Virus record (IMG/VR): IMGVR_UViG_2563366980_000004
From: a virus
Taxonomy: Duplodnaviria > Heunggongvirae > Uroviricota > Caudoviricetes
Reading direction: 5' to 3' (one strand)
Length of the DNA: 45,423 bases
The notes beneath the pieces were generated by a model. That model saw only the letters and a list, made by a program, of their open reading frames with translations. It ran no database searches and was not told the origin of the DNA. Every line of letters begins with the position of its first letter. The stretch's first letter is position 1. Both the position numbers and the translations under genes were made by a program. Of this stretch, positions 1 to 27,112 are shown one piece after another.

Positions 1-90
1 TTGCCTCCCCCCCGTTGATGGGTAAAATAGCCGCAATTTTTCGTTTTCAACAAGCGCGGCGCGATGCCGCTTACTCAAGAAGAAAGAATT

Positions 91-165
91 ATGACGTTGT
101 CTCCTTATTTGCAAGAGGTGGCGAAGCGCCGCACTTTTGCCATTATTTCTCACCCCAATAATTAA
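91..165 (+). pseudogene. prfC: 5' remnant of peptide chain release factor 3 gene (prfC'), truncated at the prophage junction
   Basis: ATG at 91 preceded by AAGAAGAAAG; translation [22 protein letters not shown] matches the RF3 N-terminus as I recall it up to the start of the GTPase P-loop, then diverges (NN-stop) where phage DNA begins. Confidence 0.55.
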
Positions 166-319
166 GTCCAAATTAAAGCTCTTTCACTCTTTCAAAATCC
201 TTTCAGTTAATTGAGGTCGAGCTATATAACTCATTTAAATACATTTGGTTATGTGACTTCTTTAATTGAAAATTCTTTCATGTAACTTTAAATCGATCAG
301 GTTGCTTTCATCAAAAATC

Positions 320-376
320 TGTACATATGCTTGTACATAATGTACAAAGCAGCAGAGGTGTTTTGCGATTTGTACA
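320..376. promoter_or_regulatory. Cluster of four TGTACA motifs overlapping the integrase promoter/leader
   Basis: TGTACA at about 320, 332, 341 and 371; TTGTACAtaaTGTACAA forms a near-palindrome about 40 bp upstream of the int ATG. Confidence 0.35.
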
Positions 377-385
377 AGGTGAGTA

Positions 386-1600
386 ATGGCGCTGTCTGAT
401 GCGTGGTTGCGTTCAGTCGTTGGAAAGGAACGTGATAAGGTTTTGGTTAAATCCGATCGTGATGGTCTGTCTGTCAGAGTATCACCGAAAGGTCGCGTAG
501 TGTTCCAATATCGTTATCAATGGGCAGGGAAAGGTGAGCGTCTTGATATCGGAACTTACCCGGCAACTGGATTAAAAGAGGCCAGAGAAGAAGTTATTCG
601 TCTCCGTGGTGAACTCGAGTCAAACCGTAATCCACGATTGGTCAAGCAGGCTGAAAAACGAAAAGCTACTGAAGCCATGACGGTAGAGTCTGTGATCCGT
701 GCCTGGTATGAAGCATATTGTGTAAAAAATAAAAAAGGTTCTGAACAGATACTCCGCTCGTTTGAGCTGCACCTGTTCTCTAAAATCGGGAATATCCCTC
801 ACGATGCAGCTACATTGCATGATTGGTTAGAAGTCCTGGAGCCTCTTAGCACTAAGACTCCAGCAATAGCAGACCGATTGCTAATTAACGCAAAGCAGGC
901 CCATGTCTGGGCGTATAAGAGAAAGCTCATTGAAACTCGCCCGCTGTCGGATATCACGGGTAAAGATATGGATATCCGTAAAGGTCAGAAGAAACGGTTT
1001 CTGACACATGATGAAATTAAAATCCTTTATGCTGCGATCGATGGTTCTCGAATGGTTCCTAAATACCGGGCCTTCATTAAACTATTGCTTCATTTTGGTT
1101 GCCGTAGTTCAGAGCTAATTACCGCCAGGGTGGACGATTTTGATTTCATTAATAAAGTATGGACTGTACCACCAGAACGACATAAGACTGGGGAGATAAC
1201 AGGCGAACCGCTAAAGCGGCCCATTATTGAACCGGTTGAAGAGCTTATAAAGTACGCTATTTCTATGAACAATGGTTCCGATATGCTTTTTACTAAGGAA
1301 GGAAGCAGGGAACCCGTTGGTCGGACATCATTGCAGTCGCTGCCTTACAATTTAATGCAGTATGCATGGCGGCGTTTGGGTTATCAATTCCCTCATTGGT
1401 CTCTTCATGATTTGAGGCGAACAGCACGAACAAACTTTTCTGATCTTACTGCGCCTCATATTGCAGAAATTATGCTAGGTCATAAACTGCCAGGGGTATG
1501 GCAAGTTTATGACAAGAGCGATTATCTAGAAGAACAGCGTAAAGCCTACCAAGCGTGGTGGGAGAGGGTTGAATCGATCGTTACTTGTACTGGTTCATAA
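386..1600 (+). CDS. int: Tyrosine-type site-specific integrase
   Basis: 404-aa ORF with AAGGTGAG RBS; N-terminal arm-binding-like region and C-terminal catalytic region with the conserved HxLRRT-like signature (HDLRRTART) and a tyrosine near the C-terminus (VYDKSDY); first phage gene next to the junction. Confidence 0.9.
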   Translation: MALSDAWLRSVVGKERDKVLVKSDRDGLSVRVSPKGRVVFQYRYQWAGKGERLDIGTYPATGLKEAREEVIRLRGELESNRNPRLVKQAEKRKATEAMTVESVIRAWYEAYCVKNKKGSEQILRSFELHLFSKIGNIPHDAATLHDWLEVLEPLSTKTPAIADRLLINAKQAHVWAYKRKLIETRPLSDITGKDMDIRKGQKKRFLTHDEIKILYAAIDGSRMVPKYRAFIKLLLHFGCRSSELITARVDDFDFINKVWTVPPERHKTGEITGEPLKRPIIEPVEELIKYAISMNNGSDMLFTKEGSREPVGRTSLQSLPYNLMQYAWRRLGYQFPHWSLHDLRRTARTNFSDLTAPHIAEIMLGHKLPGVWQVYDKSDYLEEQRKAYQAWWERVESIVTCTGS

Positions 1601-1808
1601 TCGAAATGATATTTTGCATATCTAGTACGCAATAAAATATGACAGTCCGCTTTGAGCTGCGGGCATTGCTAGCAGCATTTTCTGTGAAGTAACGGGAGGT
1701 TGTTCAATATTGCCTCTGAAAAGGATAACCATTCAATTCTTCATTGAAAAAACTCATCGAAGATTTTATGGAGGGATGCAATTTATTTTGAGCGAATTTA
1801 ATTCATCA

Positions 1809-1893
1809 CTAATGATCCTACATAGTTATTGCCTTGCTCACTAAAAGGTGAGATTTCATTAGCTCACCAACAATAATTAAATAGGATCATTAG
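1809..1893. repeat. Perfect 12-bp inverted repeat (CTAATGATCCTA / TAGGATCATTAG) flanking about 60 bp that holds a nested CTCAC/GTGAG hairpin
   Basis: Read directly in the AT-rich spacer between the int stop and the 3' end of the minus-strand moron. Confidence 0.35.
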
Positions 1894-1975
1894 CACTTTA
1901 TATCAGGCTATAATTTTAATAAATTACGTTATTTAAAGCCATTTTCTCCATCAAGTAATATCTTCATGCTAATGT

Positions 1976-2971
1976 TCACTTTTGTTTTAGCTTTATAATT
2001 TCTGATATCATAGTTGTTAGCTTTGAATCGGAAAGATTCTGCAGTCTATCTTTCTCAATAGAAACTGTAGTTTGTCCCTTTTCTAATATGAAATTTCTTT
2101 CTGTTTTCATTAAAAGCATTGCCAACTCTTTTATCATGTCTTCGTTCTTGAATTCTTGAGCATATTTTAGAGACATGACTTTCATCTCAATATTTGTGAT
2201 TTCATTCTGAAAATATTTGATTTCGTCAAACCCATTTTTATAGAGGCGTAGAAAAAAATAAGCAAACAATTCAACGACTATTACAAATGATAATTTAGGA
2301 AGGTGATGAATAAAAAATCCCACCCCATCCACAATGTCTGGCGCGCTGTAAAGAAAGTAAGCAAGAGATAATATCCCTGTCAACGCAATTATTGTTCCGA
2401 TTGCAAGGTTAAGCCCACCTCGTCGATTGAGTCTGTCTATTTCAGACTCTAATCTTAGAACCATATCAGTATGGAGTTTATGTAAGCTGTAGCTCTTCTT
2501 AAAATCAGATATATCGCTTTTTAGGCTGTTATCTGCCAGAAGTATTGTGTTTCCAATTATTCTCTTTTTTGCATCGGATATTAACTTCTCCCTTTCACTC
2601 TCTGTTATTTCAATGGAAACTCCGGAAGATGTTCTATTTTCAATTTCGCTCAATTTTTTATTTAGCTTAACTATTTCTTTGTGAAAAATATATCTCGTGT
2701 TTTCAATATCTCTACCACCAATTCCTTTGTTTAAATAAGAAGTCATTATTGCGACAAAAGAACCAACAAAAACTAGGGCAGTTGCTGTAAATAAAATAAA
2801 CTCTTTCTTCTCGTTTATTAAATTTACTATTGATGATGATTCCAGTTGAATGTCTGAAAGCGAAGTTTTAAGCACAAAATTCATCACAGGTGAAACCATG
2901 ATTATGGCAACAACTATAATAAATCCATATTTTTTTATAATGTAAATAAGAAGGCCAAATAAATCTTTCAT
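1976..2971 (-). CDS. Hypothetical integral membrane protein with four predicted TM helices and coiled-coil segments (AT-rich moron)
   Basis: 338-aa ORF (TTG at 2992; first ATG at 2971); hydrophobic segments at roughly residues 15-37, 66-87, 195-217 and 232-250 separated by K/E-rich heptad-like regions; markedly AT-rich relative to flanking phage genes; no family recognised. Confidence 0.7.
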   Translation of the reverse strand: MKDLFGLLIYIIKKYGFIIVVAIIMVSPVMNFVLKTSLSDIQLESSSIVNLINEKKEFILFTATALVFVGSFVAIMTSYLNKGIGGRDIENTRYIFHKEIVKLNKKLSEIENRTSSGVSIEITESEREKLISDAKKRIIGNTILLADNSLKSDISDFKKSYSLHKLHTDMVLRLESEIDRLNRRGGLNLAIGTIIALTGILSLAYFLYSAPDIVDGVGFFIHHLPKLSFVIVVELFAYFFLRLYKNGFDEIKYFQNEITNIEMKVMSLKYAQEFKNEDMIKELAMLLMKTERNFILEKGQTTVSIEKDRLQNLSDSKLTTMISEIIKLKQK

Positions 2972-3344
2972 TTTATCTTTTACCTGAAACAAATTTTTAT
3001 TAAAGTAACTTAAAAAATGATTGATTGCAAGATTTACTATTGCTGTTCATTTTAAATTACTATACCCCCCTATGCATACATATAATCCCATAGGGGAGAA
3101 GTTTATTAGTTAGTTAAGTTGAAGGCTATACCTACAATCTAATTCCCCTCCAACCTAACATGCACAAGCGTCAACCTATCGGTAGTGATAATTTTATGAG
3201 GATACGTATAAACAAGATTCTGAGTTGCTCCTATTCATTAAGACAATACATTTTGTAACTTCTGCTTTTGGCTCAGGGTGGGGTGTGAGATTAGGTTTGG
3301 CTCTGTGCCATAGATGTGTCAGTTCACATCTGAGCTAATACACA

Positions 3345-3539
3345 TTACTCAATCACTCCAGCAAACCTATATATCTTGTGTGACGCCCATTTATTTGGGC
3401 ATGATTTAATATCAGGATCTGGAAAATCAGGCCTGTATTTCTGGCCAGTTCTCCGGTTTACGCTGTTCCAGCGAAGAACTGTCGATACTGAAACGCCACA
3501 GAAGTCGGCGACTTGTTTAGTTGTCATTAAGTTGTTCAT
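3345..3539 (-). CDS. AlpA/excisionase-like small DNA-binding protein
   Basis: 64 aa; TKQVADFCGVSVSTVLRW helix-turn-helix followed by an FPxP motif, as in AlpA/Xis-family proteins; sits at the head of the leftward operon facing int. Confidence 0.7.
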   Translation of the reverse strand: MNNLMTTKQVADFCGVSVSTVLRWNSVNRRTGQKYRPDFPDPDIKSCPNKWASHKIYRFAGVIE

Positions 3540-4333
3540 TACTTCACCTCCTGCGGCGGTTCCGGTAGCGGCATCCAGTGGGTTACTTTCGATGCCGGTT
3601 CTTCCACATCGTCAGTAACTGCCCACCATTTGTTTCTCGACCAATCGTAATACCCTTCGAAGGTATCGCACTCAGTCCAGCCGTAAGACTTCCCCCAACA
3701 CCAAACATACTGTTTATCGTTCGGCATTCGCTCACTACAGCTTATCCAACCATCCGGAGTTACCGGAGAGTTGCCCGATAGCGCATTACGCAATCGCTCC
3801 AGCTTCACGTATTCCTGAACCCTGTTTCCGTCGCATGCCTGAAGCCATTGCGCAGCCTTTTGCGCATCAGTGTGAAAGGCACAAGTGCGACCGTCATCAA
3901 ATTGCATTTCGTAGAGGTCAGCAACTTGTTCAAACTGCGTGTGTTGTGACTTGTAAGTTTGGCTTACAGGTTCGGCACCATGAAGCATGGCGGCGCGGCA
4001 GGCGTTCCAGCCATCAACATAATCAAACGTATTGCTATCGTCTGGCTCGATTTCATCTGGCACTATCAGCACCGGCTGGACGGTGACATTGGCAAAGGCA
4101 GCACGCAACCCGGTTTTAATTTCTTCGATTTCATCAGAGCCAAGCGATGAGTCAGAAAGCGCATGGTGGAATGCGTAAGCCATGTCGTCGTTTACTGCCA
4201 CCGGCTCTGCTTCCAGTGATGCCAGCGCGATAAGCGCCAGCTCACGAATTTCACCGCCGTCTATATCGTCAATGTCATCGCGGCCAGAAATGTTAGCCAG
4301 CCATTGCAGTCGCTCTTTGGAAATAGTGATCAT
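3539..4333 (-). CDS. Phage protein with C-terminal DUF551 domain
   Basis: 264 aa; C-terminal W-rich region ending VTHWMPLPEPP is characteristic of DUF551; N-terminal domain is paralogous to ORF 4697..5053. Confidence 0.8.
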   Translation of the reverse strand: MITISKERLQWLANISGRDDIDDIDGGEIRELALIALASLEAEPVAVNDDMAYAFHHALSDSSLGSDEIEEIKTGLRAAFANVTVQPVLIVPDEIEPDDSNTFDYVDGWNACRAAMLHGAEPVSQTYKSQHTQFEQVADLYEMQFDDGRTCAFHTDAQKAAQWLQACDGNRVQEYVKLERLRNALSGNSPVTPDGWISCSERMPNDKQYVWCWGKSYGWTECDTFEGYYDWSRNKWWAVTDDVEEPASKVTHWMPLPEPPQEVK

Positions 4334-4695
4334 GCCGTAGCCCCTTCTTGATATTTTTCAAACCAGAACACAACCGGGTCAGATTTCATTTCAACCAATC
4401 CCATACGAACCAGCGCCTTGCCTTTCCCGGACGCAAGGAATTCACGACGACCATCACTGATAATTCGCCGATAGTCTTCCAGGCTACTGCAATGCTTGTG
4501 CAGATTGCATGGGTGGCATGCCGGAACCATGTTGGATATATCGTCACGCTCCTGGTGAAGCATATTTCCATCAAAACGAATGACCGGTTTTACATGATCT
4601 GCATGCCACTTTTCGCCAAGTTCGCAGCCGCAATAAGCGCAGCGACCACCGAACTTCATGCGCAGTTCTGCACGTTGTTTTTTCGTCAGTGCCAT
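4330..4695 (-). CDS. HNH endonuclease
   Basis: Start taken at MALTKKQ; motifs GGRCAYCGCEL...WHADHVKP...CHPCN are a classic HNH zinc-finger nuclease signature; overlaps flanking genes by a few nt. Confidence 0.8.
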   Translation of the reverse strand: MALTKKQRAELRMKFGGRCAYCGCELGEKWHADHVKPVIRFDGNMLHQERDDISNMVPACHPCNLHKHCSSLEDYRRIISDGRREFLASGKGKALVRMGLVEMKSDPVVFWFEKYQEGATA

Positions 4696-4696
4696 A

Positions 4697-5053
4697 TCAC
4701 TCTCCTTTCCCCTGAAGCATGGCTTCGCGGCAATCGTTCCATCCTTCAGCATAATCACTATACGCAAGAGGCCAACCTCTTATGTATTCACGCGGCAACT
4801 TATCAGGCACTACCAGCGCTGGCGGCGCGGTGTAAAGCTGGTGCGTTCCATCTGGCAGCGAGTGACCTACATACTCACCGACCCCGTCAACACACATGCA
4901 CCCATCCTCAATAATGCATTCCGCTACAGGCTCTGCCTCCAGCGATGCCAGCGCAATTTCATAAGCACGGCGCTCAATATTGTCTCTAACGTCCAGGCTA
5001 CCGATTCGCTCTTTGATTTCTTTAATCAGTTCCTTATCGGTGAAAGTGGTCAT
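4697..5053 (-). CDS. Hypothetical phage protein (YfdT-like; paralog of the N-terminal domain of 3539..4333)
   Basis: 118 aa; shares IALASLEAEPVA and GWNxCRxAML motifs with the 264-aa DUF551 protein. Confidence 0.7.
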   Translation of the reverse strand: MTTFTDKELIKEIKERIGSLDVRDNIERRAYEIALASLEAEPVAECIIEDGCMCVDGVGEYVGHSLPDGTHQLYTAPPALVVPDKLPREYIRGWPLAYSDYAEGWNDCREAMLQGKGE

Positions 5054-5415
5054 TATGCCCCAGCCTCCGGTGCTTTTGGCATTACTGCCCAGTGAGTGAT
5101 ATTGACGTTTTCAAGGTCCCCGACCTGAAATGTCCACTGCCATTCTCCGGTTTCTTTTTGTCCCCAGGTGTACCAGAGAGAACGCCAGCCAATCAGCCAG
5201 CCTTCTCCGTTAATATCAAATAACAGAACACTTTCATTTGCTGGTGGAAGTTCAACTGACACTGGTATTACTTTGTTTTCCAGTGCCGCACATTTAGCTT
5301 CAAGCGCATCGAATTTACGTACCAGATACTCAGCATTTGTTTCATTCACTTTCAGATCTCGCGGTACACATTTCCCGCGAAGAAACCCTTCCATTTCGAA
5401 AACATTCATGCGCAT
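5053..5415 (-). CDS. Hypothetical phage protein with DUF551-like C-terminus (YfdS-like)
   Basis: 120 aa; W-rich C-terminus ending ITHWAVMPKAPE resembles DUF551. Confidence 0.7.
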   Translation of the reverse strand: MRMNVFEMEGFLRGKCVPRDLKVNETNAEYLVRKFDALEAKCAALENKVIPVSVELPPANESVLLFDINGEGWLIGWRSLWYTWGQKETGEWQWTFQVGDLENVNITHWAVMPKAPEAGA

Positions 5416-5942
5416 TTGCGTAACTCCGATAACTCGTTAAAACGTTCCATAAACATCCCATAGGCATGGCCTGGCGACAGTGGAATAACTTTGAACATCT
5501 CTGTTGCCGGGATACCTTCCAGTACAGGCCAGAAAGAGCCATCATCAAGCCCGAGATCGCGGCGTTCGGTTGCCAGCATGATGAGATCGGCATATTTCAC
5601 AGGCGTGCTCATAACCGGGGGTAACCCGTATTTCTCACGGATTACGGCGTCTATTTTTTCTTCCATCCGTTTATAGTCAGGAAGAAGGCGTTTCAGTGGC
5701 GCGGGGATGTCCTGGCAATACGCTTCTGTTGCATCATGCATTAACGCTTCAAAAGCAAATTCCTGCGGCACCAGCTGGCTGCAAAGCACCGCATGCTGGG
5801 CGACGCTGTAGAAGTGTGAAAGATGTCCTGCAAAGCGACAGATATTTGAAAGGGAAACCGCGATATCGTTAATCACGATGTCGTCTTTATTTATCCTGTC
5901 ATAATAAAAATGCTTCCCGGAAAAAGTTTTAATAAATGACAT
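5406..5942 (-). CDS. HD-domain phosphohydrolase (YfdR-like)
   Basis: Start taken at MSFIKT (ORF-track frame arithmetic); HD-type metal-binding residues (H...HD...D) in NICRFAGH...EALMHDATEAY. Confidence 0.8.
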   Translation of the reverse strand: MSFIKTFSGKHFYYDRINKDDIVINDIAVSLSNICRFAGHLSHFYSVAQHAVLCSQLVPQEFAFEALMHDATEAYCQDIPAPLKRLLPDYKRMEEKIDAVIREKYGLPPVMSTPVKYADLIMLATERRDLGLDDGSFWPVLEGIPATEMFKVIPLSPGHAYGMFMERFNELSELRKCA

Positions 5943-6069
5943 TTTGTTCTCCACGTATATGTGCTGCACCACGCTGAATTCTGGTAAAAGGAAGCCCTCA
6001 CCATCCGGTGATTATTGAGTTAATTACGTTTCCATAAATGCCCCCGCAGGGGCATTTGCAGTAATGAAA

Positions 6070-6894
6070 TCAGGCGGTGAAAGTACCAATAAAGGTTTCT
6101 ACTTTGCTGTCCTTGAATTTCTCAACAAGCAGATCACGAAATTCGTTAGCCATTTCCTCCTGCACTGCTTCCAGCTGAATAATGCGCAGAACCAGTACAG
6201 GACGATCGCCAGTGAGAATGCTGAGGCGTAATTTAAACGGACGTTCTTTCAGGCCTTCAAACGGAACGCATTTAAATTCAAATGCCACTGGCATAATGTC
6301 TTTGGTTTTCGCTTCGACAGACTCCATCAGGGAGCGTTTGCCGCTGAAGTCATTGTCTTCAAAATCAGCGGTCTGGTTTGCTTCAATCGTGATTTTACGG
6401 ACTGCCGCAGCTGCTTTTGTTGCCTGAATAGCGTCACCATTAGCATCAAAGCCCACAAGGTAGTCGGCCCAGTCTTCAATCCATTCTGCCAGTGACTTCT
6501 GGGAGTTACGCTCGCCATTAACAGACAACAGAGCAGAGAACGGTGCTGTCTTTTTCAGTTTGAGAGTGGCGGTGTTATCTGCGTGACCTGGTTCATCAAT
6601 AGTACCCAGATTAAGCACACTGACAGCACGCATATTATCAGCATCGATAAAGCAGCGGGTGCCTTCATCTGCAAGATCTTTAGAATAACGGGTAAAGTCA
6701 TCGATGCTGGCAGTGGAAAGCGCACCACGGAAACGGAAGCGATTTAAATTAAATTTTTCCAGATCATGAATGCGGAAATTCTCAGGCAATGCCACAGCAT
6801 CGGCACCAATCTTACTGATAATTTCATTAACACCCTGAGCAGAAATAAGGGCATGGATTTGATTAATTGCGGTTGCGTCTAAGTTCTGAGACAT
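6070..6894 (-). CDS. DUF2303 family phage protein (YfdQ-like)
   Basis: 274 aa, same length and general sequence character as E. coli prophage YfdQ; conserved early-left position. Confidence 0.75.
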
Positions 6895-6959
6895 AATAAG
6901 TCCTCACTATATAAAGATATTCAGTGATGAGATAAATAATCAGTTTATTAAAAACGATA

Positions 6960-7322
6960 TTAACGACCAGCTGCGCGGAGTTTTCCGTCAGGTTCACCGG
7001 CAAGAGTCAGTAATTGTCCCTGGTCTTCCTGCAGAATAGTCAGGCGACCACCGCGATTGACATACATCGGCGTTTCGGTGGTGTCTTCTTCGGAAATTTT
7101 CCCGCGGTTAGTTGGGCGAACATATGAGAGTTTGTGTTTGATTTTCACACGGTTCTCATCAAACGGTTCGATTTCCAGATTGAGTGAGACCTTCCCTTTG
7201 GTTTTCGTGTTCATCACACCGGAAGCGACTTCACTTAGAACTGCGCCGATTTTTGTTTCAAATACGCCGCCGTCCAGCTCCCCGATAAATGCCTGCACAT
7301 CAGTACTGCGTTCACTAGCCAT
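6960..7322 (-). CDS. Hypothetical early-left phage protein (YfdP-like)
   Basis: Start taken at internal MASERSTD (ATG 7322); the upstream in-frame extension to 7508 looks non-coding (C/H/R-rich and overlaps a 10-bp inverted repeat). Confidence 0.6.
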   Translation of the reverse strand: MASERSTDVQAFIGELDGGVFETKIGAVLSEVASGVMNTKTKGKVSLNLEIEPFDENRVKIKHKLSYVRPTNRGKISEEDTTETPMYVNRGGRLTILQEDQGQLLTLAGEPDGKLRAAGR

Positions 7323-7950
7323 TTTGCTGCTCCTCATCATATCGACCCTGCAATGTCGGTTAGTTTCTCCACAAAACAGAGAAGAACACCTGCGGTGGTA
7401 GCCGCCCGGATGGATTGGGTTATGAGCCCGTCGTCCGATGATGTTCTTCTCTGTTTTGTAAAAAGAGCGGTACCAGCCGGAAGCAAGTGTACAAACTGGT
7501 ACCGCCAAAGCAGTGGCTGTTGTGGTGACCGGTGCTGATCTCCGGCTTGCGGTTATTTCAGACTCTCACGGGCATTTAATTGCCCCGCCGAACAGCTCTT
7601 TTCCGCAATAGCTGCAATGTCTTTCGCGCATCAGCCTGCGCATTCACCACAACGCTGAGAGCACTTAGCCAGTTACGGCACCACACTTTGTCGCGGTTCC
7701 ATAAATGCCCTCATCGTTGCACCCTGGTCTCTTCCCAGGCGTCAAACCGAATCGCCACGCTGGTTAGGCGTCTTATCAGCATCATCATTGACTTGCACAT
7801 TCCGGCTACCTGGTTTGTTTGCCCGAGCAAGGAGTGGATTGTCCCCTTTAACGTCCCCAGACCGCTAACGACGCATGTGCCATACGCCGTGTTACAACCA
7901 AATTTTGTTAGTACCTTGTTTGTTTGTCTGGAAAGAAAGATAAAATGAAG

Positions 7951-7989
7951 TTGCGCATTATGCAAGTGTTTTTGTTGCGAGATATGCAA
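7951..7989. promoter_or_regulatory. Candidate OL: two 15-bp TTGC-N7-GCAA palindromic operator sites
   Basis: TTGCGCATTATGCAA (7951-7965) and TTGCGAGATATGCAA (7975-7989) have the same half-site pattern as the site in the cI-cro intergenic region; positioned just beyond the cI terminator, where lambda-like pL/OL would be. Confidence 0.45.
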
Positions 7990-8000
7990 TTTAATGGGTA

Positions 8001-8025
8001 ATGAAAAGCCACCTTCGGGTGGCTA
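8001..8025 (-). terminator. Intrinsic terminator downstream of cI
   Basis: GCCACC-UUCG-GGUGGC tetraloop hairpin followed on the minus strand by TTTTCATT, about 20 nt after the cI stop. Confidence 0.5.
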
Positions 8026-8044
8026 ATTGATGAGGAGGTAAGGG

Positions 8045-8737
8045 TTAATTGTGTCGCTTAAGGGTTTGTGACTGGCTGATTAAGACCTTTCCAAAGACCA
8101 TAAACCGGTGTTCATTTTCGCTGGTAATTCCCCATTCACGGTAAATCTGGTTATCAGAAATCACCAGTAGTTTGTCAGGTATCATTTGCAGTCGTTTGAC
8201 ATAAATTTTATCATCAAAACCAAATACATAGATACCATCTCCATCAAACTGATTGATACTGACATCAACGAAGATGAGATCTCCTGGCTCAATGGTTGGA
8301 CACATACTGTCCCCACGAACGTTGATAACTTTAATGTGATTGGCTGGCCGTCCGCCAAACATCGATACAGCATTATCAGTTCTGTATTCAATGGCATGAA
8401 TCACATCAATGACATCACCGCCCTGGATAAGGCCATTTCCCGCACTGGCACTGACATCCAGCATTTCAATACGGAATACATCCTTCACCTGCGCAACATC
8501 CTCACTAATACTGTTTTTACATACAGTATTACTTTTGAAGTCTGAGGTAAAGAGATCAGCAATATCAACACCTAAGCTCCTGGCAATATTACTCAGGGCT
8601 TGTTCAGTGAATTGTTTCTGCTTACCTGTTTCCAGGCGTGAGATATTCGCCGCATCCACTCCTATTGCTTCAGCGAGATCGGCGATTTTCATGTTCTTCG
8701 CCTGGCGAAGTTGTCTGACTCGGTTTCCTATGTTCAT
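8045..8737 (-). CDS. cI: CI-type prophage repressor (HTH_XRE + S24 LexA-like peptidase domain)
   Basis: 230 aa; N-terminal HTH (LRQAKNMKIADLAEAIGVDAANISRLETGK) and C-terminal S24 signature (RGDSMCPTIEPGDLIFVD...YVKRL); divergent from the cro-like gene. Confidence 0.9.
   Translation of the reverse strand: MNIGNRVRQLRQAKNMKIADLAEAIGVDAANISRLETGKQKQFTEQALSNIARSLGVDIADLFTSDFKSNTVCKNSISEDVAQVKDVFRIEMLDVSASAGNGLIQGGDVIDVIHAIEYRTDNAVSMFGGRPANHIKVINVRGDSMCPTIEPGDLIFVDVSINQFDGDGIYVFGFDDKIYVKRLQMIPDKLLVISDNQIYREWGITSENEHRFMVFGKVLISQSQTLKRHN
8509..8528. promoter_or_regulatory. Consensus-like SOS (LexA) box inside the cI coding sequence
   Basis: TACTGTTTTTACATACAGTA matches CTGT-N8-ACAG with TA flanks; in the HTH-peptidase linker region of cI. 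Confidence 0.35.
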
Positions 8738-8834
8738 GCGTTTATTACATTTCTTTATTGCGCGTTAAGCAAATCAACTTGCGCAAAATATTTGCGTGAA
8801 ATAATATGCTCATCACGCAATATGTGGAGGTCAT
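8738..8834. promoter_or_regulatory. OR/pRM-pR divergent promoter-operator region between cI and cro
   Basis: 97-bp AT-rich spacer containing TTGCGCGTTAAGCAA (TTGC-N7-GCAA) and the palindrome CGCAAAATATTTGCG; GGAGG RBS before the cro ATG. Confidence 0.6.
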
Positions 8835-9095
8835 ATGCAATCACCATTACGGAATGTGCGTAAGGCGCACGGATTTACTTTGCAGCATGTTGCTGCTGGC
8901 GTTCAGGTCAATCCAGCGACGCTGAGTCGTATTGAAAGACTGGAACAAATTCCATCTATCGATCTTGCAGAACGTCTGGCCAATTTTTTTAAGGGTGAAA
9001 TCAGCGAAATGCAGATTCTTTATCCGGCACGTTTTCAATCTAGCCAAAACCAGAATGGGTTTAAACCACAGGAACAGGAGGTAAGCCGTGGGTAA
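8835..9095 (+). CDS. cro: Cro-like HTH_XRE transcriptional regulator
   Basis: 86 aa; HTH (GFTLQHVAAGVQVNPATLSRIER); first gene of the rightward operon. Confidence 0.8.
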   Translation: MQSPLRNVRKAHGFTLQHVAAGVQVNPATLSRIERLEQIPSIDLAERLANFFKGEISEMQILYPARFQSSQNQNGFKPQEQEVSRG

Positions 9096-9639
9096 TCATC
9101 ACTGGAAAGTGGAAAAACAGCCTGAGTGGTACGTGAAAGCTGTCAGAAAAACTATCGCGGCGTTGCCGGGGGGTTACGCTGAAGCTGCTGAGTGGCTGGA
9201 TGTAACAGAGAACGCTTTATTCAACCGCCTTCGTGCAGATGGCGATCAGATTTTCCCGCTGGGATGGGCAATGATTTTACAGCGTGCTGCTGGCACTCAC
9301 TACATTGCGGATGCTGTCGCACAGTCTGCTGGTGGGGTGTTTGTATCGCTTCCTGAAATTGAGGAAGTAGAGAACGCAGATATAAACCAGCGCCTGCTGG
9401 AAGTCATCGAACAGATCGGGAGTTACTCAAAGCAGATTCGTTCGGCAATCGAAGATGGGGTAGTGGAGCCACACGAGCAGACAGCAATTAATGATGAATT
9501 GTATCTGTCAATTTCGAAGCTCCAGGAGCATGCGGCACTGGTCTACAAAATTTTCTGCGCTCCAGAAAAGAGTGACGCCCGCGAGTGTGCAGCTCCGGGC
9601 GTCGTGGCGTTTTGTGTCTGTGGAGAAACTAACGCATGA
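9088..9639 (+). CDS. CII-like / YdaT-like early regulatory protein
   Basis: 183 aa; GTG start with AGGAGG RBS; position after cro; weak resemblance to CII/YdaT-family proteins (functional call tentative). Confidence 0.6.
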   Translation: MGNHHWKVEKQPEWYVKAVRKTIAALPGGYAEAAEWLDVTENALFNRLRADGDQIFPLGWAMILQRAAGTHYIADAVAQSAGGVFVSLPEIEEVENADINQRLLEVIEQIGSYSKQIRSAIEDGVVEPHEQTAINDELYLSISKLQEHAALVYKIFCAPEKSDARECAAPGVVAFCVCGETNA

Positions 9640-10787
9640 ACAGTTTAACGGCAAATAACCGTTTGTCGCAACAGCTGGTGGTCAGTGTCGCTGCACACCT
9701 GTTGTTACGGCATGAATGCAGATTACCAAATCACCTGGCTGTAAGTAACCACAGAGAACTTTACCTGACTGTGGGGGGCGAGTTGTGCAGGAACTTAACC
9801 GCTGGTTTCGTGACGGAAGAGGACTTTATGTTCATGTTATTCGTTGGGAGCCAGAAACACAGCGCGTTATCTATCTTCGCAAAGACTACCCGCATGAGTG
9901 CTTTAGTCCTTTGTGGAAATTCAGGCGTGATTTTGTTGAGTGTGAAGGACCACCAGCACATTGATTCTGCCATTCCGGGACGTTACACTGTTCAGGCACC
10001 TTATAAAGCGGGTGCCGGGCGTGGAAACCCGGAATTCACCAAAGCGCACAACCGCGCTCTTGCGGTTTTTTTGTGTCATGAGCAGCATTACGCCCAAATT
10101 ATGGTGGGGCGTGCAGGGCCAACTTCGGTTGGGCCGGGTTCTTTGGTGACCGGTATTTCCACCCCTGTACGTCTCACCACCAATAAGGTCGTGGAAAGCC
10201 TTGGTGGTGAGTTATTAAAAATCACCAAAGAGGCTGCCATCATGGCTACGATCCCAACCCTCACTCAACCTGAAATTGCCATCGTTGATGGTCAGGCTGT
10301 TACTTCATCCCTGGCTGTTGCCAACTTCTTCTCCAAACGTCATGACGATGTACTGAAAAAGATCCGCACGCTTGAATGTTCCGCATCATTCACTGCCCGC
10401 AATTTTTCGGTGAGTGATTACACCGATTGCACAGGCCGCAAACTACCTTGCTATCAAATAACCCGCGACGGCTTTGCGTTTCTTGCTATGGGTTTCACGG
10501 GTAAACGTGCTGCCCAGTTCAAAGAGGCATACATCAATGCCTTTAACCAGATGGAGAAACAGCTTTCAAAGCCCGCTGTACCGAGCGACGTTGCACATAA
10601 CGCCAGCGTTCTCTGTTCCTACATTTCATCAATTCATCAGGTCTGGCTGCAGCAGCTTTATCCTATGTTGGCAAAAGCCGAATCTCCGCTGGCTGTTAGC
10701 TTATATGACTATATTAATGATGCTTCGGCGCTGGCCTGCCTCATAAATTTGTCGCTGAACCCTTCAGAGGTAAGGGGGCGCAAATGA
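9636..10787 (+). CDS. Rha-family phage regulatory protein (Rha domain from ATG 10242; status of the upstream 200 codons uncertain)
   Basis: C-terminal 182 aa (MATIPTLTQPEIAIVDGQAVTSSLAVANFFSKRHDDVLKKIR...) matches the Rha domain, with an AAGAGG RBS before 10242; the same frame is stop-free back to an ATGA overlap with the upstream gene but has odd composition and an internal terminator-like hairpin. Confidence 0.5.
   Translation: MNSLTANNRLSQQLVVSVAAHLLLRHECRLPNHLAVSNHRELYLTVGGELCRNLTAGFVTEEDFMFMLFVGSQKHSALSIFAKTTRMSALVLCGNSGVILLSVKDHQHIDSAIPGRYTVQAPYKAGAGRGNPEFTKAHNRALAVFLCHEQHYAQIMVGRAGPTSVGPGSLVTGISTPVRLTTNKVVESLGGELLKITKEAAIMATIPTLTQPEIAIVDGQAVTSSLAVANFFSKRHDDVLKKIRTLECSASFTARNFSVSDYTDCTGRKLPCYQITRDGFAFLAMGFTGKRAAQFKEAYINAFNQMEKQLSKPAVPSDVAHNASVLCSYISSIHQVWLQQLYPMLAKAESPLAVSLYDYINDASALACLINLSLNPSEVRGRK
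10050..10072 (+). terminator. Intrinsic terminator-like hairpin plus T-run (tR1-like)
   Basis: ACCGC-GCTCTT-GCGGT followed by TTTTTTT. Confidence 0.45.
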
Positions 10788-11008
10788 TCCGGAATATTTT
10801 CAAACGTTTTACCAATCAGACTTTCCGTTGTCCTCGTCCGGGTCAGTGGTACACCACGCCTGCAGGGCATGTTCTACGTGTTAGCCTGGTTGACCGTGAA
10901 TGTCAGAAGGTGATTTGTGAACCGCTGGGCCGTAATTACCGCGTCAGTATGCCGCTTATAGCCTTTCGCTCCGGAAAAAACATGAAGCATCTCGGAGGTG
11001 CAGCATGA
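10784..11008 (+). CDS. Hypothetical small phage protein
   Basis: 74 aa; ATGA start/stop overlaps with both neighbours suggest translational coupling. Confidence 0.5.
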   Translation: MIRNIFKRFTNQTFRCPRPGQWYTTPAGHVLRVSLVDRECQKVICEPLGRNYRVSMPLIAFRSGKNMKHLGGAA

Positions 11009-11823
11009 GTATGGAGCTGATGGTTAAAGCGATGAAAATTCGAGTGGGTAATCCATTGCGAAAACTGGTTCTGATCAAGCTGGCTGATAATGCCAGCGAT
11101 CAGGGTGAGTGCTGGCCCAGCTACCAGCATATTGCTGACCAGTGCGAGATTAGCAAACGTTCTGTGATGAATCATATTGCGGCCCTTTGTGAGTCCGGGC
11201 TGGTAAAAAAAGTCACCCGGAAAGGTGAAAAAGGTAACTCAAGTAATATCTATCTCCTTCATCTTGATGGTGCAGGAGATTCACTAGGGGGTAGTGCAAA
11301 TAATTCACTATCTGGTGCAGCAAATTCACCAGGTAGTGCAGGAGTTGCACCAGGGGGTAGTGCAGGAGATTCACCCAGAACCAGTCACTCTTTTGAACCA
11401 GTCAAAGAACCAGTCAATGAACCAATAGCTGTTGGTGCATCTGCTGATGAGTCTGTGCGAGTTCGTTCAAACCGACCGGAATACTCTCCGGAGTTTGAGC
11501 AGGCATGGCTGGCCTATCCCAAACGTGCTGGTGGCAATTCAAAATCTGCAGCCTTCAAAGCCTGGAAAGCCCGTTTGAATGAGGGGGTAAACCCCGAAAC
11601 CATGCTGGAAGGTGTGAAACGCTACGCGGGCTGGGTATCTGCGATGGGTAACAGCGGCACACAATTTGTGAAACAGGCTGTCACGTTCTTTGGTCCGGAT
11701 CGTCATTTCGAAGAATCCTGGGAAGTTCCTGCAGTATCTGCAGCCAGACGCGAGGACCCGTACTTCAAAGCCAGTTACGACAACGTGGACTACAGCCAGA
11801 TCCCGGCAGGATTCAGGGGGTGA
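11005..11823 (+). CDS. Replication initiation protein (O-like, N-terminal HTH; YfdO-like)
   Basis: 272 aa; N-terminal winged-helix-like region, central Gly/Ser/Ala-rich linker encoded by direct DNA repeats, C-terminal domain (EFEQAWLAYPKRAGGNSKSAAFKAWKARL). Confidence 0.7.
   Translation: MSMELMVKAMKIRVGNPLRKLVLIKLADNASDQGECWPSYQHIADQCEISKRSVMNHIAALCESGLVKKVTRKGEKGNSSNIYLLHLDGAGDSLGGSANNSLSGAANSPGSAGVAPGGSAGDSPRTSHSFEPVKEPVNEPIAVGASADESVRVRSNRPEYSPEFEQAWLAYPKRAGGNSKSAAFKAWKARLNEGVNPETMLEGVKRYAGWVSAMGNSGTQFVKQAVTFFGPDRHFEESWEVPAVSAARREDPYFKASYDNVDYSQIPAGFRG
11269..11388. repeat. Iteron-like direct repeats inside the O-like gene (putative ori)
   Basis: GTGCAGGAG(A/T)T, GGTAGTGCA and ATTCAC motifs each recur 3-4 times within about 120 bp. 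Confidence 0.4.
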
Positions 11824-11825
11824 TT

Positions 11826-12314
11826 ATGAGTCTTTTGAATGAAGTTCAGAAATTCATTGAAGCCCATCCGGGGTGTACTTCTGGAGACATTGCGGATGCT
11901 TTTGCTGGTTACTCACGGCAGCGCGTTCTGCAGTCAGCAAGCAAGTTACGTCAGAGTGGGCGTGTGGCTCACCGTTGTGAAGGAGATACACGCAGACATT
12001 TCCCGCGCCTGACTGAGAGAGCGCAGGAGCCGGAACCACAATCTGTTCGTGAAACCAGACCTGTGCGCAATTTCTATGTCGGCACTAACGACCCCCGGGT
12101 GATTTTGTGCCTGACCCGCCTGGCTGAAGAACTGGAGTCCAGGGGCTTATTCCGTCGAGCTGCAACGGTGTGGATGGAGGCATTCCGTGAAAGCCACTCC
12201 CAGCCAGAACGAAACAATTTTCTGGCGCATCGTGAGCGGTGCTTACGGAAAAGCAGCAAGCGCGCTGCATCGGGTGAAGAGTGGTATCTGTCAGGGAATT
12301 ACGTGGGGGCTTAA
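11826..12314 (+). CDS. PerC-family transcriptional regulator-like protein (YfdN-like)
   Basis: Motif LESRGLFRRAATVWMEAF resembles the PerC/Pch signature; ATG 11826 with GGGGGTG RBS; length matches E. coli YfdN (164 aa). Confidence 0.55.
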   Translation: MSLLNEVQKFIEAHPGCTSGDIADAFAGYSRQRVLQSASKLRQSGRVAHRCEGDTRRHFPRLTERAQEPEPQSVRETRPVRNFYVGTNDPRVILCLTRLAEELESRGLFRRAATVWMEAFRESHSQPERNNFLAHRERCLRKSSKRAASGEEWYLSGNYVGA

Positions 12315-12967
12315 TGAGTAATAAATATTGCCAGGCGCTGGTGGAGCTGCGGAACAAACCAGCCCATGAACTGAAGGAAGTGGGCGATCAGTGGCGCACG
12401 CCGGACAACATTTTCTGGGGAATTAACACCCTGTTTGGCCCGTTTGTTCTGGATCTGTTTACTGATGGTGATAACGCCAAATGTGCCGCTTATTACACTG
12501 CGGAAGACAACGCGCTGGCGCATGACTGGTCAGAACGTCTTGCGGAGCTTAAAGGTGCTGCCTTTGGTAATCCCCCGTACAGCCGCGCGAGTCAGCATGA
12601 GGGGCAATACATCACCGGCATGCGTTACATCATGAAACATGCCAGTGCTATGCGTGATAAAGGCGGGCGCTATGTTTTCCTGATCAAAGCTGCCACCAGC
12701 GAAGTTTGGTGGCCGGAAGATGCAGACCATATTGCTTTTATTCGCGGGCGTATTGGTTTTGAACTGCCAGCCTGGTTTATCCCGAAGGACGAGAAGCAGG
12801 TGCCGACAGGCGCTTTCTTCGCTGGTGCTATTGCTGTTTTCGACAAGACCTGGAAGGGACCGGCAATCAGCTACATCGGGCGCGATGAACTTGAGGCATG
12901 TGGTGAGGCCTTTCTGGCGCAGGTTCGCCAGCAGGCGGAAAAACTGGTCAGGGAGATGGCGGCATGA
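12314..12967 (+). CDS. Phage N6-adenine DNA methyltransferase (Dam-like)
   Basis: NPPY catalytic motif (FGNPPYS); start at MSNKYC with TAATG overlap. Confidence 0.85.
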   Translation: MSNKYCQALVELRNKPAHELKEVGDQWRTPDNIFWGINTLFGPFVLDLFTDGDNAKCAAYYTAEDNALAHDWSERLAELKGAAFGNPPYSRASQHEGQYITGMRYIMKHASAMRDKGGRYVFLIKAATSEVWWPEDADHIAFIRGRIGFELPAWFIPKDEKQVPTGAFFAGAIAVFDKTWKGPAISYIGRDELEACGEAFLAQVRQQAEKLVREMAA

Positions 12968-13290
12968 CGACATTAACTCAATGCCAGCAGCAGGTGCTGG
13001 ATATGCTGATTTCTTACCAGAAAGAACGTGGCTTCCCGCCAACCAATCAGGAGGTGGCAACCATGCTGGGATACCGTTCAGTGAATGCAGCGGTGGAGCA
13101 TCTTCGCGCACTGGAGAAAAAAGGCGTCATCACGATAAAGCGTGGCGTGGCCCGGGGGATAACGCTTCATACCGCGGTGAAGGACGACGACAGCGAGGCG
13201 GTCGGGATTATCCGCTCACTGCTTGCCGGTGAGGAAAACGCAAGGCTGCGTGCAACCCACTGGTTACATGAGAGAGGCCTGAAAGTATGA
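12964..13290 (+). CDS. LexA N-terminal DNA-binding domain protein (no S24 peptidase domain)
   Basis: 108 aa; TQCQQQVLDMLISYQKERGFPPTNQEVATMLGYRSVNAAVEHLRALEKKGVI parallels the LexA winged-helix domain; no catalytic Ser/Lys domain follows. Confidence 0.7.
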   Translation: MTTLTQCQQQVLDMLISYQKERGFPPTNQEVATMLGYRSVNAAVEHLRALEKKGVITIKRGVARGITLHTAVKDDDSEAVGIIRSLLAGEENARLRATHWLHERGLKV

Positions 13291-13676
13291 AGCTGATCCT
13301 GCCTTTTCCGCCCAGCGTGAACACGTACTGGCGACACCCCAACAAAGGGGCGTTTGCAGGTAAGAGCCTGATAAGCGCGGCGGGGCGAAAATTCCAGAGC
13401 GCGGCGTGTGCAGCAATAGTTGAGCAGTTACGTCGTCTGCCAAAACCAACGTCGGCACCTGCTTCAGTGGAGATCGTGTTGTTTCCTCCGGATAACCGGA
13501 TCCGCGATCTGGACAACTATAACAAGGCGCTGTTTGACGCCCTGACCCACGCGGGTGTGTGGGAGGACGACAGTCAGGTGAAAAGAATGCTGGTTGAGTG
13601 GGGACCGGTTATCCCGAAAGGGAAGGTCGAGATCACTATCAGTAAGTATGAGAAACCGGCGGGTGCAGCCGCCTGA
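13287..13676 (+). CDS. rusA: RusA Holliday-junction resolvase
   Basis: LPFPPSVNTYWR...DLDNYNKALFDALTHAGVWEDDSQV is the RusA signature. Confidence 0.9.
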   Translation: MKLILPFPPSVNTYWRHPNKGAFAGKSLISAAGRKFQSAACAAIVEQLRRLPKPTSAPASVEIVLFPPDNRIRDLDNYNKALFDALTHAGVWEDDSQVKRMLVEWGPVIPKGKVEITISKYEKPAGAAA

Positions 13677-13695
13677 TTAAGAGGAGAAACGAAGT

Positions 13696-14493
13696 ATGAA
13701 TAATCTGATGGTCATTGATGGTATTGAAGTTCGTCGTGATGCTTATGGTCGTTACAGCCTGAACGATCTTCACAGGGCTGCCGGTTCTCTGGATAAGCAT
13801 AAGCCTGCATTCTGGCTCCGCAATGAGCAAACTGAACATTTAATAAGCGAGTTGCAGATTTGCAACTCGGTCAATATAGAGCCAGTTAACGTTATTCGTG
13901 GCGGAAATAACCAGGGGACGTATGTCTGCAAAGAACTGGTGTATGCCTATGCAATGTGGATAAGCCCGTCATTCCATCTTAAGGTGATCCGTACTTTCGA
14001 TATGGTAACCAGCGTACCGGAAAAATTATCCGGGCAGGCTGCTGACAAGATGCAGGCTGGTGTGATTCTGCTGGACTTTATGCGCCGGGAATTAAATCTG
14101 TCTAACTCTTCAGTGCTTGGTGCCTGTCAGAAACTCCAGGAGGCTGTTGGCTTACCGAATCTGGCACCGCGCTATGCCATTGATGCTCCTGCTGACGCGC
14201 CTGATGGCTCAAGCCGCCCCACGCTGTCACTGAGTGCACTGCTGAAGCAGTATGGTATCCGCCTGACAGCTAATCAGGCATATCACCAGATGGCGAAGCT
14301 GGGGATCGTTGAACAACGTGAACGATACAGCCGTACCGAGATTAATAACATCAAAAAATTCTGGTCGCTGACGGCGAAAGGCTGCATGTTCGGCAAGAAC
14401 ATCACCAGTCCGGCAAATCCGCGCGAGACGCAGCCACACTTCTTCGAATCCCGATTCCCTGAGCTGTTAAAGCTGCTCGATACCGTTCATTGA
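13696..14493 (+). CDS. KilA-N domain protein (antirepressor-like)
   Basis: N-terminal KilA-N-like domain (IDGIEVRRDAYGRYSLNDLHRAAG...KPAFWLRNEQT...AMWISPSFHLKVI). Confidence 0.75.
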   Translation: MNNLMVIDGIEVRRDAYGRYSLNDLHRAAGSLDKHKPAFWLRNEQTEHLISELQICNSVNIEPVNVIRGGNNQGTYVCKELVYAYAMWISPSFHLKVIRTFDMVTSVPEKLSGQAADKMQAGVILLDFMRRELNLSNSSVLGACQKLQEAVGLPNLAPRYAIDAPADAPDGSSRPTLSLSALLKQYGIRLTANQAYHQMAKLGIVEQRERYSRTEINNIKKFWSLTAKGCMFGKNITSPANPRETQPHFFESRFPELLKLLDTVH

Positions 14494-14494
14494 G

Positions 14495-15490
14495 GTGACC
14501 GTGAGAGCACTACTGACCCCTGAAATTGCCCCGCGTATGGGGATCGTATTGTTCAGACCCGGTTCAGAGCTGATGCCCCTGTTTATGCAGGGGCGTGTCC
14601 TGCTGGAGCCTGAGCCGGAACGTTATTCATCTTTCGCCAGTGGTGCCGTTCCGGCGGCATCACAACCGCTGGCGGATGATCCTGCCGTTCGGGCCGTGTT
14701 CCGCAATGAGGCAGTTATTCGTCGTGCGGGTGGCGTGGAATGTCTTGAAAGCTGGTTACTTCGTGAAAAGGGCTGTCAGTGGCCTCATTCCGACTGGCAC
14801 AGCGAGAACATGACCACAATGCGACACGCTCCGGGCGCAATCCGTCTGTGCTGGCACTGCGATAACCTGCTTCGCGATCAGTTCACGGAACGGCTGGAAT
14901 CAATGGCAACGGATAACTGTGCCCGCTGGGTGTTGTCTGTTGTGCGTCGGGATCTCGGTTTTGATGACAGTCACGTTGTGACAATGCCGGAACTGTGCTG
15001 GTGGCTGATTCGTAATGACCTGGCGGATGCCTTACCGGAAAGTGCAGCCCGTAAGGCACTGAGATTACCAAAGCCTGTTGTGCCGTCTGTCACCCGGGAA
15101 AGTGACCTTGTGCCTTCGGTTCCTGCCACCAGCATCATCCAGGATAAAGCGAAAAAGGTGCTGGCGCTGAAAGTGGATCCGGAGTCGCCGGAGTCTTATA
15201 TGTTACGCCCAAAACGTCGCCGCTGGGTTAATGAAAAGTACACGCGCTGGGTTAAGACACAGCCGTGTGCATGTTGTGGAAAGCCCGCTGATGATCCCCA
15301 CCACCTGATAGGTCACGGTCAGGGTGGAATGGGAACAAAAGCGCATGACCTTTTTGTGTTGCCTTTGTGCAGAAAGCATCACGACGAGCTGCATGCGGAT
15401 ACCGTGGCATTTGAAGAGATGTATGGCTCCCAGCTGGAGCTGATATTTCGTTTTATCGATCGTGCGCTGGCAATTGGCGTGCTGGCCTGA
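14495..15490 (+). CDS. DUF968 domain phage protein
   Basis: GTG start; C-terminal Cys/His-rich motif [43 protein letters not shown] typical of DUF968. Confidence 0.7.
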
Positions 15491-15507
15491 TTTTGTGGAG
15501 AAAGTTG

Positions 15508-15873
15508 ATGCGTGATATTCAAATGGTTCTTGAACATTGGGGGGCATGGGTGGCAAATAATCACGAGGATGTCACCTGGTCGTCTATTGCTGCAGGATTT
15601 AAAGGACTAATCCCTTCAAAAGTAAAATCCCGCCCGCAATGTTGTGACGATGATGCGATGATCATTTGTGGGTGCATGGCTCGCTTGAAAAAGAACAACA
15701 GCGATTTGCACGATTTATTAGTGGGTTATTATGTAGGTGGTATGACGTTTATGGCGCTTGCCCGTAAACATGGGCGTTCTGATTGCTGGGTTGGGCGTTT
15801 ATTGCAAAAGGCTGAAGGTGTAGTTGATGGCATGTTAATGATGTTAGAAATTGAGCTAGAGATGGATCGTTAG
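15508..15873 (+). CDS. Q: Antitermination protein Q
   Basis: [34 protein letters not shown]...[20 protein letters not shown] matches enterobacterial prophage Q antiterminators; ATG 15508 with GGAGAAAG RBS. Confidence 0.8.
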
Positions 15874-15957
15874 AAGACCTCTTATTGAGGGGGTAATTGA
15901 ATCAGTTTAATGTGTGGGGAGTCGATTTATTCTCCCCATTTTATTTAATTAATTTAC

Positions 15958-16404
15958 TTAAGGTTTTAATTCATCAAGACGTTGTTGGATAGTGTTTTTG
16001 CTTGCGTTGTCTGTTATAGCCATTTGTTGTACTTGCCCCATTGCCATTTGAGTTTCCATCCACATATCGGCCCACACTTTTGTATCGTTATTAACTTGAG
16101 CGATAGTAAATCTGACTTTTGATACCGGGGTTGTTGAATAGGCATTGCCGATTAACATTTGTCCAAAAACGGCAGAGCCGCCTTCCAGTTCTTTACCACA
16201 TATAACACTGCTGTTATCCGCGTTGTAAATTATCAACCCTCTACTATTGCAGTAATTCACAAGGGCATCTTTGACTTTATCTTTTGTCGTATTTTGATAA
16301 ACCCCCTCAGGTTTTCCTGATTGAGTTTTCTTTATCAATGGTACGGAAGAAGTACAACCTGAAATGATAGTTGCGCTAAGTAATAGTACAGTTATTTTAT
16401 TCAT
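15958..16404 (-). CDS. Hypothetical lipoprotein (AT-rich moron between Q and the late promoter)
   Basis: 148 aa; signal peptide with lipobox (LLLSATIISGC); AT-rich and antisense to the surrounding operon. Confidence 0.75.
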   Translation of the reverse strand: MNKITVLLLSATIISGCTSSVPLIKKTQSGKPEGVYQNTTKDKVKDALVNYCNSRGLIIYNADNSSVICGKELEGGSAVFGQMLIGNAYSTTPVSKVRFTIAQVNNDTKVWADMWMETQMAMGQVQQMAITDNASKNTIQQRLDELKP

Positions 16405-16469
16405 GTTTCTTATCCATTGTTAAGGGCATACCCACACAATTATTTTTATTGGAGATGAATAATCAACCG

Positions 16470-16497
16470 TTTACAATCGTAAAAAATCAAATATGCT
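16470..16497 (+). promoter_or_regulatory. Candidate late promoter pR'
   Basis: TTTACA - 16 nt - TATGCT, about 35-60 nt upstream of a terminator, resembling the lambda pR'/tR' short-RNA arrangement. Confidence 0.35.
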
Positions 16498-16530
16498 GTT
16501 AAGAGTGGTTACTTCGCCACACAACTTAAA

Positions 16531-19514: not shown

Positions 19515-19516
19515 GG

Positions 19517-27101: not shown

Positions 27102-27112
27102 AGAGGTGTGGG

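Follow-up and report, generated by a model that had tools for sequence, protein, structure and literature searches.

The left attachment site of a cdtI-type lambdoid prophage in Escherichia coli prfC, and a phage-borne start that very probably rebuilds the gene

Background

The prfC gene is an established integration site of Stx1a and Stx2c phages (PMC2323221, PMC10132054, PMC12831630, PMC3491183), and in 2007 an Stx1 phage in prfC was described to alter a short N-terminal region of RF3 (Ogura; PMC2323221). The integrases of phage cdtI and of SXT cluster together, and both elements insert at prfC (PMC8138268). SXT/R391 elements bring a new promoter for prfC, according to a passage of PMC8409611 that cites Hochhut and Waldor (1999), and membership of this family goes with an Int about 99% identical to IntSXT (PMC2791158). 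A comparable strategy is known from the dusA elements (e.g. IMEVchUSA3), which, like the phage considered here, insert into the 5′ part of a gene and supply a diverged N-terminus restoring the frame, a new promoter and restored expression having been shown by lacZ fusion (PMC8409611); unlike this phage, they are mobilisable islands with another target gene and another integrase lineage.

Here we describe a stretch of 45,423 nucleotides (called the window, at its full length) of which positions 91–165 are very probably the attL of a 46.2-kb lambdoid prophage lying within prfC, with a phage-borne start rebuilding the prfC frame at attR.

Results

Source of the window and the left junction in prfC

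The window matched E. coli UTI89 (NC_007946.1, 4987026–5032448) with 3 mismatches in 45,423 bases. The full element measured 46,244 bp from core to core in UTI89, and the window, which ended at the start codon of the last minus-strand cargo gene in that strain, covered all but the last ~1 kb of it. The features discussed below are collected in Table 1.

Bases 1–155 were base-for-base identical to the yjjG–prfC intergenic region and prfC codons 1–22 of K-12 MG1655, and the equivalent stretch of UTI89 lay directly after yjjG, the window beginning just past the yjjG stop codon. Positions 91–156 comprised the first 22 codons of native E. coli prfC, as had been claimed in an earlier, sequence-only reading, which recognised there the N-terminus of RF3 behind an RBS. 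The ATG at 91, with a purine-rich stretch (AAGAAGAAAGAA, 76–87) ahead of it, fell on the base equivalent to the annotated MG1655 prfC start; a longer in-frame ORF from ATG 64, given in a mechanical ORF list, differed from the annotated start. A chance match to prfC was excluded, because 5,425 of the 5,426 complete E. coli genomes matched the prfC-start stretch.

The alignment with an uninterrupted prfC locus, which the sequence-only reading had proposed as a check, gave identity through base 155 and divergence from base 156, the first mismatch to MG1655 being the silent third base of Pro22. The next codons of native K-12 prfC were GAC GCC GGT AAG (DAGK), and in the window AAT AAT TAA (Asn-Asn-stop) stood at 157–165, where these P-loop codons were due. 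The break thus fell directly before the P-loop, and the claim of a broken frame ending in an NN-stop exactly where the P-loop should start was correct. Host sequence stops at base 155/156, and the phage DNA that follows encodes a P4/SXT-type integrase and a complete lambdoid set of genes, which bears out the placing of attL inside the prfC coding sequence. That reading had also put the integrase right at the junction; phage DNA does begin there, but the integrase ORF starts only at 386, 220 nt past the stop.

Table 1. Coordinates of the features of the prfC junction and the prophage (positions in the window)
Feature	Position	Strand	Basis
Promoter-like site of native prfC, TTGCCT-16 nt-TAAAAT (predicted)	1..28	+	Consensus scan only; identical to MG1655 yjjG–prfC region
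Orphaned native prfC 5′ end, codons 1–22	91..156	+	RefSeq, partial pseudogene in UTI89
att core ATTTCTCACCC	145..155	+	Common to attL, attR, attB and attP in the five-sequence alignment
First phage-derived bases (silent C of Pro22, then Asn-Asn-stop)	156..165	+	Alignment
Lambdoid prophage body	156..45423	+	UTI89 annotation; window–UTI89 identity
P′ arm of attachment site	157..385	+	TGTACA(A/T)A motifs at 320, 332, 341 and 371
Tyrosine integrase, 404 aa (arm-binding, central and catalytic domains)	386..1600	+	Pfam
Excisionase candidate, 64 aa, helix-turn-helix	3345..3539	-	PHROG 1553 'excisionase', E = 4e-36, full length

Attachment sites and the phage-borne copy of the prfC start

Five sequences were aligned, namely attB (MG1655), attL (window), attR (UTI89) and the attP sites of the free phages cdtI and Ayreon. 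The left part of attL and the right part of attR equalled attB, and the phage-derived sides of attR and attL, put together, gave attP. Judged from this alignment, the crossover must occur inside the core or at one of its borders. One base just left of the core varied between copies (ATC vs ATT), and in Ayreon the identity of attP and attB reached 20 bp (TTTGCCATTATTTCTCACCC).

In the cdtI and Ayreon genomes a copy of the prfC start (hereafter the mimic), the core and int were contiguous, the mimic of attP being a 23-codon ORF 220 nt upstream of int. The NN-stop seen at attL is therefore the phage's own ending of this 23-codon ORF. Over 14 codons, 9 of 42 bases differed between the phage and host copies, with 7 synonymous and 0 nonsynonymous codon changes, and residue differences of the mimic were confined to positions 2–8. 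This ratio of synonymous to nonsynonymous changes argues for the mimic having been selected to encode the conserved strand leading into the RF3 P-loop, beyond DNA identity with the target.

Right junction and the hybrid RF3

A search of the window for a second direct-repeat copy of the core was negative; since attR is ~970 bp past its right end, this is no argument against integration. The attR sequence was therefore taken from UTI89 and from some 700 further genomes, the window's own strain differing from UTI89 by 3 mismatches. In UTI89 it reads ATGACAAGC...ATCATTTCTCACCC/GGACGCCGGTAAG, and the right junction with its phage side is caattATGACAAGCCTTTTGGCCGCAGAGGTAGCGAAAAGAAGAACCTTTGCAATCATTTCTCACCC/GGACGCCGGTAAG (slash, junction). 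The phage supplies an ATG and 20 diverged codons, which are fused in frame to prfC codon 23 at the core ATTTCTCACCC. In the source strain the right junction is expected as GCAATCATTTCTCACCCGGACGCC, with ATGACAAGCCTTTTGGCC 51 bp upstream of the core. A duplicated core at the other prophage end and an in-frame replacement start, both of which the sequence-only reading had said should be looked for, were thus present in UTI89 attR.

The hybrid prfC encodes 528 aa, is annotated as intact in UTI89 (RefSeq) and passes the prfC equivalog model TIGR00503 with 1062 bits. Its product was identical to K-12 RF3 in 521 of 521 residues from Glu8/9 to the end, the differences lying only in the first 7–8 residues. 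The integration is thus of the gene-restoring kind, in which an in-frame surrogate gives a full-length target ORF. The earlier reading had allowed either inactivation of prfC or a replacement 5′ end from the other terminus; of these, the replacement stood, at the level of sequence, with the intact 528-aa prfC of UTI89.

We propose that an SXT-related tyrosine integrase recombined attP with the prfC codons Ile-Ser-His-Pro (the core), just before the GTPase P-loop. In attP the mimic and int lie on opposite sides of the core, and because of this position integration has two outcomes. At attL the predicted promoter, RBS and 22 codons of the native gene remain as a 24-codon orphan ORF upstream of int, and at attR the phage-borne start is joined to prfC codon 23, giving a 528-aa RF3.

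Just beyond the right end of the window, UTI89 carries a dinI-like gene on the minus strand (L001 47896–48177). Ahead of this gene, about 190 bp before the phage-borne start of prfC, is a LexA-box-like palindrome (TACTGTGTTTGTATACAGTA, L001 48158–48177). The DNA from which the hybrid prfC must be driven therefore adjoins a probable SOS-regulated promoter.

Integrase, arm sites and excisionase candidate

The Pfam matches of the integrase were all above the curated cut-offs (PF13356, 60.4 bits; PF22022, 32.2 bits; PF00589, 64.9 bits). Residues R240, K267, H341, R344, H366 and Y375 were invariant in an alignment of 14 integrases, and the H366–Y375 spacing of 9 equals the H333–Y342 spacing of lambda Int. 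At the nucleotide level the gene was 96–98% identical to the cdtI/Ayreon integrase genes (96.4% to cdtI int), and the protein was 39% identical to the Int of R997 (SXT/R391) over 406 aa (E = 2e-91). It had the features of the IntSXT subgroup, that is, three domains, the R-K-H-R-H-Y residues, kinship to the SXT/R391 and cdtI Int proteins and insertion at the prfC 5′ end; membership of the prfC-targeting IntSXT cluster rests on Smyshlyaev et al. 2021 (PMC8138268).

Four of the six TGTACAWA matches in the window lay within 320–376, between the core and int, and four further TGTACA were found in the 115 bp left of the mimic start at attR. A 22-bp module, TGTACATATG(C/A)TTGTACATAAT, was present in one copy on each arm. 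The integrase probably binds the TGTACA motifs as arm-type sites. Between the orphan ORF and int, a terminator scan and an RNA fold of 157–390 revealed no intrinsic terminator, the fold having z = -2.1 and hairpins without a U-tract.

The excisionase candidate scored below the cut-off against Pfam HTH_17 and gave no BLASTP alignment with the R997 Xis. Positions 3345–3539 carry no CDS in the UTI89 RefSeq annotation.

Prophage body and cargo

The prophage genes annotated in UTI89 included int, XRE-type repressor and cro-like genes, the Q antiterminator, and lysis, terminase, portal and capsid/head genes, followed by lambda-like tail genes, J, Lom, tail fibres and a few minus-strand cargo genes. 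In gene set (UTI89 annotation) and int/att identity (phage-genome comparison) the element was a lambdoid temperate phage of the cdtI/Ayreon type.

Three low-GC ORFs, all on the minus strand, were located at the prophage ends (1976–2992, 43532–44290 and 44389–45423), the GC content being 0.32 over 2001–3000 and about 0.39–0.42 over 43–45 kb. ORF 1976–2992 had predicted membrane segments. PADLOC and Pfam scans of these three ORFs and of 15958–16404 gave no significant match, and PHROGs matched the cargo ORFs only to families of unknown function (5157, 6191). The same slots held cdtABC in phage cdtI, and genes for a TIR protein, a reverse transcriptase and an AIPR protein in p13P484A-1 (NZ_CP019281.1, 33.7 kb). 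The latter was submitted as a plasmid of E. coli, but what it contains is a related phage in a circular assembly full of frameshifts, whose attP is joined (dinI-like gene, mimic, int); it probably represents a prophage that was excised or misassembled, not a plasmid. The ORF slots at the ends of the prophage may be moron or defence slots.

Repeats were observed at three further places. Iteron-like direct repeats (GTGCAGGAGATTCAC and variants, at least 4 copies) at 11270–11374 lay inside ORF 11005–11823, annotated as a helix-turn-helix protein in UTI89, and resemble a lambdoid origin of replication situated in an O-like gene. The tail-fibre ORF 39180–41561 contained periodic repeats at 39601–40157, built of 21-nt units and of a higher-order unit of 189 nt, the copies being about 80% identical. 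The adjacent minus-strand ORFs 3539–4333 and 4697–5053 had repeats in common (3978–4231 and 4710–4957, about 730 bp apart, 83–86% identity), which suggests duplicated modules; in UTI89 a DUF551 partial pseudogene covered the equivalent of 3539–3778, and ORF 4697–5053 was a hypothetical protein.

Prevalence and spread among relatives

The prfC site was uninterrupted in 4,717 of 5,426 complete E. coli genomes, and attL and attR of this type were found in 701 and 700 of them, respectively; roughly 13% of the complete genomes (700/5,426) thus have a prophage with this int/att module at prfC, and other insertions at the site are all but absent. Genomes showed either an empty site or two junctions ~46 kb apart, with a median of one place per genome matching either junction. 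The attR feature was annotated prfC in every row sampled from the ~700 genomes.

A protein search revealed a large family of integrases, 50–85% identical, in many Proteobacteria, and an exact-protein look-up found the orphan prfC start ahead of int in three Pseudomonas loci and one Vibrio locus (Vibrio diabolicus). Relatives were then scanned with one genome per species (80 Int relatives from genome contigs). An orphan prfC start ending ...AIISHP was located 196–234 bp upstream of int in 19 of the 80, whose integrases were 45–99% identical and which belonged to the Gamma- and Betaproteobacteria, with hosts including Enterobacterales, Pseudomonas, Methylomonas, Halomonas, Variovorax and Methylibium. 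Such a start was absent from all 26 relatives whose identity was 33% or lower, and there was no prfC fragment upstream of int in many relatives at 40–51% (one at 53%). Relatives without the fragment included Morganella, Xenorhabdus, Photorhabdus, Kluyvera and Acinetobacter; these sister integrase clades presumably target other sites. (T)GTACA motifs were present in all 21 prfC-associated P′ arms examined, in most of them at offsets of about 133, 145 and 183 nt, with a 12-bp spacing.

Comparison with cdtI-type phages and SXT/R391 elements

The comparators were phage cdtI (NC_009514), Ayreon (MF807953) and the long-tailed Stx1a/Stx2c phages at prfC (LC727876–LC727902). The cdtI/Ayreon group resembled the present element in the integrase with the P′ arm (95.7–97.7% nucleotide identity), in the P arm with the prfC mimic (94.8–96.9%), in the attP order (dinI-like gene, mimic start, core, int) and in the integration site. 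The cargo differed, with cdtABC beside the dinI-like gene in cdtI, stx in the Stx phages and the three low-GC ORFs here. On these identities the element is to be placed in the group of phage cdtI, Ayreon and the prfC-type Stx phages.

R997 (NZ_KY433363.1, SXT/R391) targets the same prfC 5′ codons and likewise bears a substitute start; its attP has a prfC mimic and a similar core, with GTGTACAAA repeats in each of the two arms, and its Int is homologous with the same three domains. It is, however, a conjugative element with tra, setCD, setR and eexS, none of which occurred in the window, and its int is located past xis and oriented towards the core, whereas the int described here is 230 bp from the core and points away. 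The phage Int, at 39% identity to that of R997, is far from the near-identity expected within the SXT/R391 family, and no tra/setCD/setR backbone was found in the window or the UTI89 annotation. As far as genes and sites tell, the phage works like SXT at prfC, with a homologous Int/att module, and is outside the SXT/R391 family.

Phage 21 and e14 at icd offer a further parallel, since they too integrate inside a conserved protein gene and keep it intact by a diverged duplicate of the displaced end. There it is the 3′ end that is replaced, no promoter or RBS is needed, and the integrase is unrelated.

Discussion

Insertion in prfC with a substitute start is already described for these phages and for SXT/R391, and there is nothing new in that finding; the conserved break point and arm motifs across Beta- and Gammaproteobacteria are an extension of the known picture.

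Integration parts prfC from its promoter-like site (1–28) and its RBS, the former staying upstream of the orphan fragment and int. The insertion could on this account inactivate prfC, the frame being intact but no expression following from the lost promoter and RBS, so that lysogens would be without RF3, a loss that would be tolerable because prfC is non-essential. In keeping with this, a strict sigma-70 scan of the plus strand gave no site in the stretch of ~220 bp that separates the dinI-like gene from the hybrid ATG, and the candidates from a looser scan of the same region were all weak (TTTTCT-17-CATAAT and an extended -10, TGcTATGCT). Every gene just upstream is encoded on the other strand, which makes read-through from a phage operon in the lysogen unlikely. 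Ogura et al. (2007) stated that transcription and translation of prfC in such lysogens were not known (PMC2323221), and Bobay et al. (2013) counted prfC among the genes disrupted by prophages (PMC3603311). We nevertheless hold a loss of RF3 to be improbable. The 7 synonymous against 0 nonsynonymous changes point to a segment kept as RF3 coding sequence, the mimic was retained in all three independent attP sites (cdtI, Ayreon and the distantly related R997), the attR gene was annotated prfC throughout the sampled rows, and the same strategy has been shown experimentally to keep dusA expressed (PMC8409611). Because the mimic diverges only synonymously and distant elements retain it, we infer that a promoter on the phage DNA would drive the hybrid prfC, in the way reported for SXT, and that RF3 function would thereby be kept.

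It had also been considered that positions 91–156 might be a phage-borne decoy of the prfC start, with the host prfC intact elsewhere. Phages of this family do carry a prfC-like start of their own, but it is the diverged copy at the other end, and the reverse of the decoy arrangement was seen, the window copy being the host original and the phage copy standing at attR. The identity of bases 1–155 to the K-12 yjjG–prfC region, their position directly after yjjG in UTI89, the median of a single matching place per genome and the choice between an empty site and two paired junctions all speak against a decoy, to which we attach practically no probability; the UTI89 annotation, the att alignment and the MG1655 identity refute it.

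Beyond the rebuilding of prfC at attR, integration may bring about a reciprocal exchange of promoters, in which a phage promoter would serve the hybrid prfC and the host prfC promoter would serve int, making Int constitutive in lysogens. In the free phage the mimic ORF and int are in series, and a promoter ahead of the mimic could serve int too; after integration the host prfC promoter, RBS and 24-codon orphan ORF stand 220 nt upstream of int, with no predicted intrinsic terminator between. The int gene of SXT depends on SetCD and is silent without it (PMC4344509), which speaks against strong read-through in that relative, and we consider the exchange rather unlikely. If it did take place, constitutive Int could favour tandem integrations and the 'phage shift at prfC' of STEC CC119, which was reported as unexplained (PMC10132054), and the RF3 level would be under phage control.

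For annotation purposes, the 24 codons left at attL are a true remnant of the gene, and the 528-aa prfC at attR is a phage–host hybrid that should not be counted as disrupted or as the loss of a core gene. At the coding level, the intact hybrid ORF contradicts the listing of prfC as a disrupted gene (PMC3603311). The effect of such insertions on RF3 level and termination fidelity was flagged as open in 2007 (PMC2323221) and, for SXT, in 2021 (PMC8409611). About 13% of complete E. coli genomes (700/5,426) appear to have an RF3 whose N-terminus is encoded by a phage and whose expression presumably depends on signals that the phage supplies.
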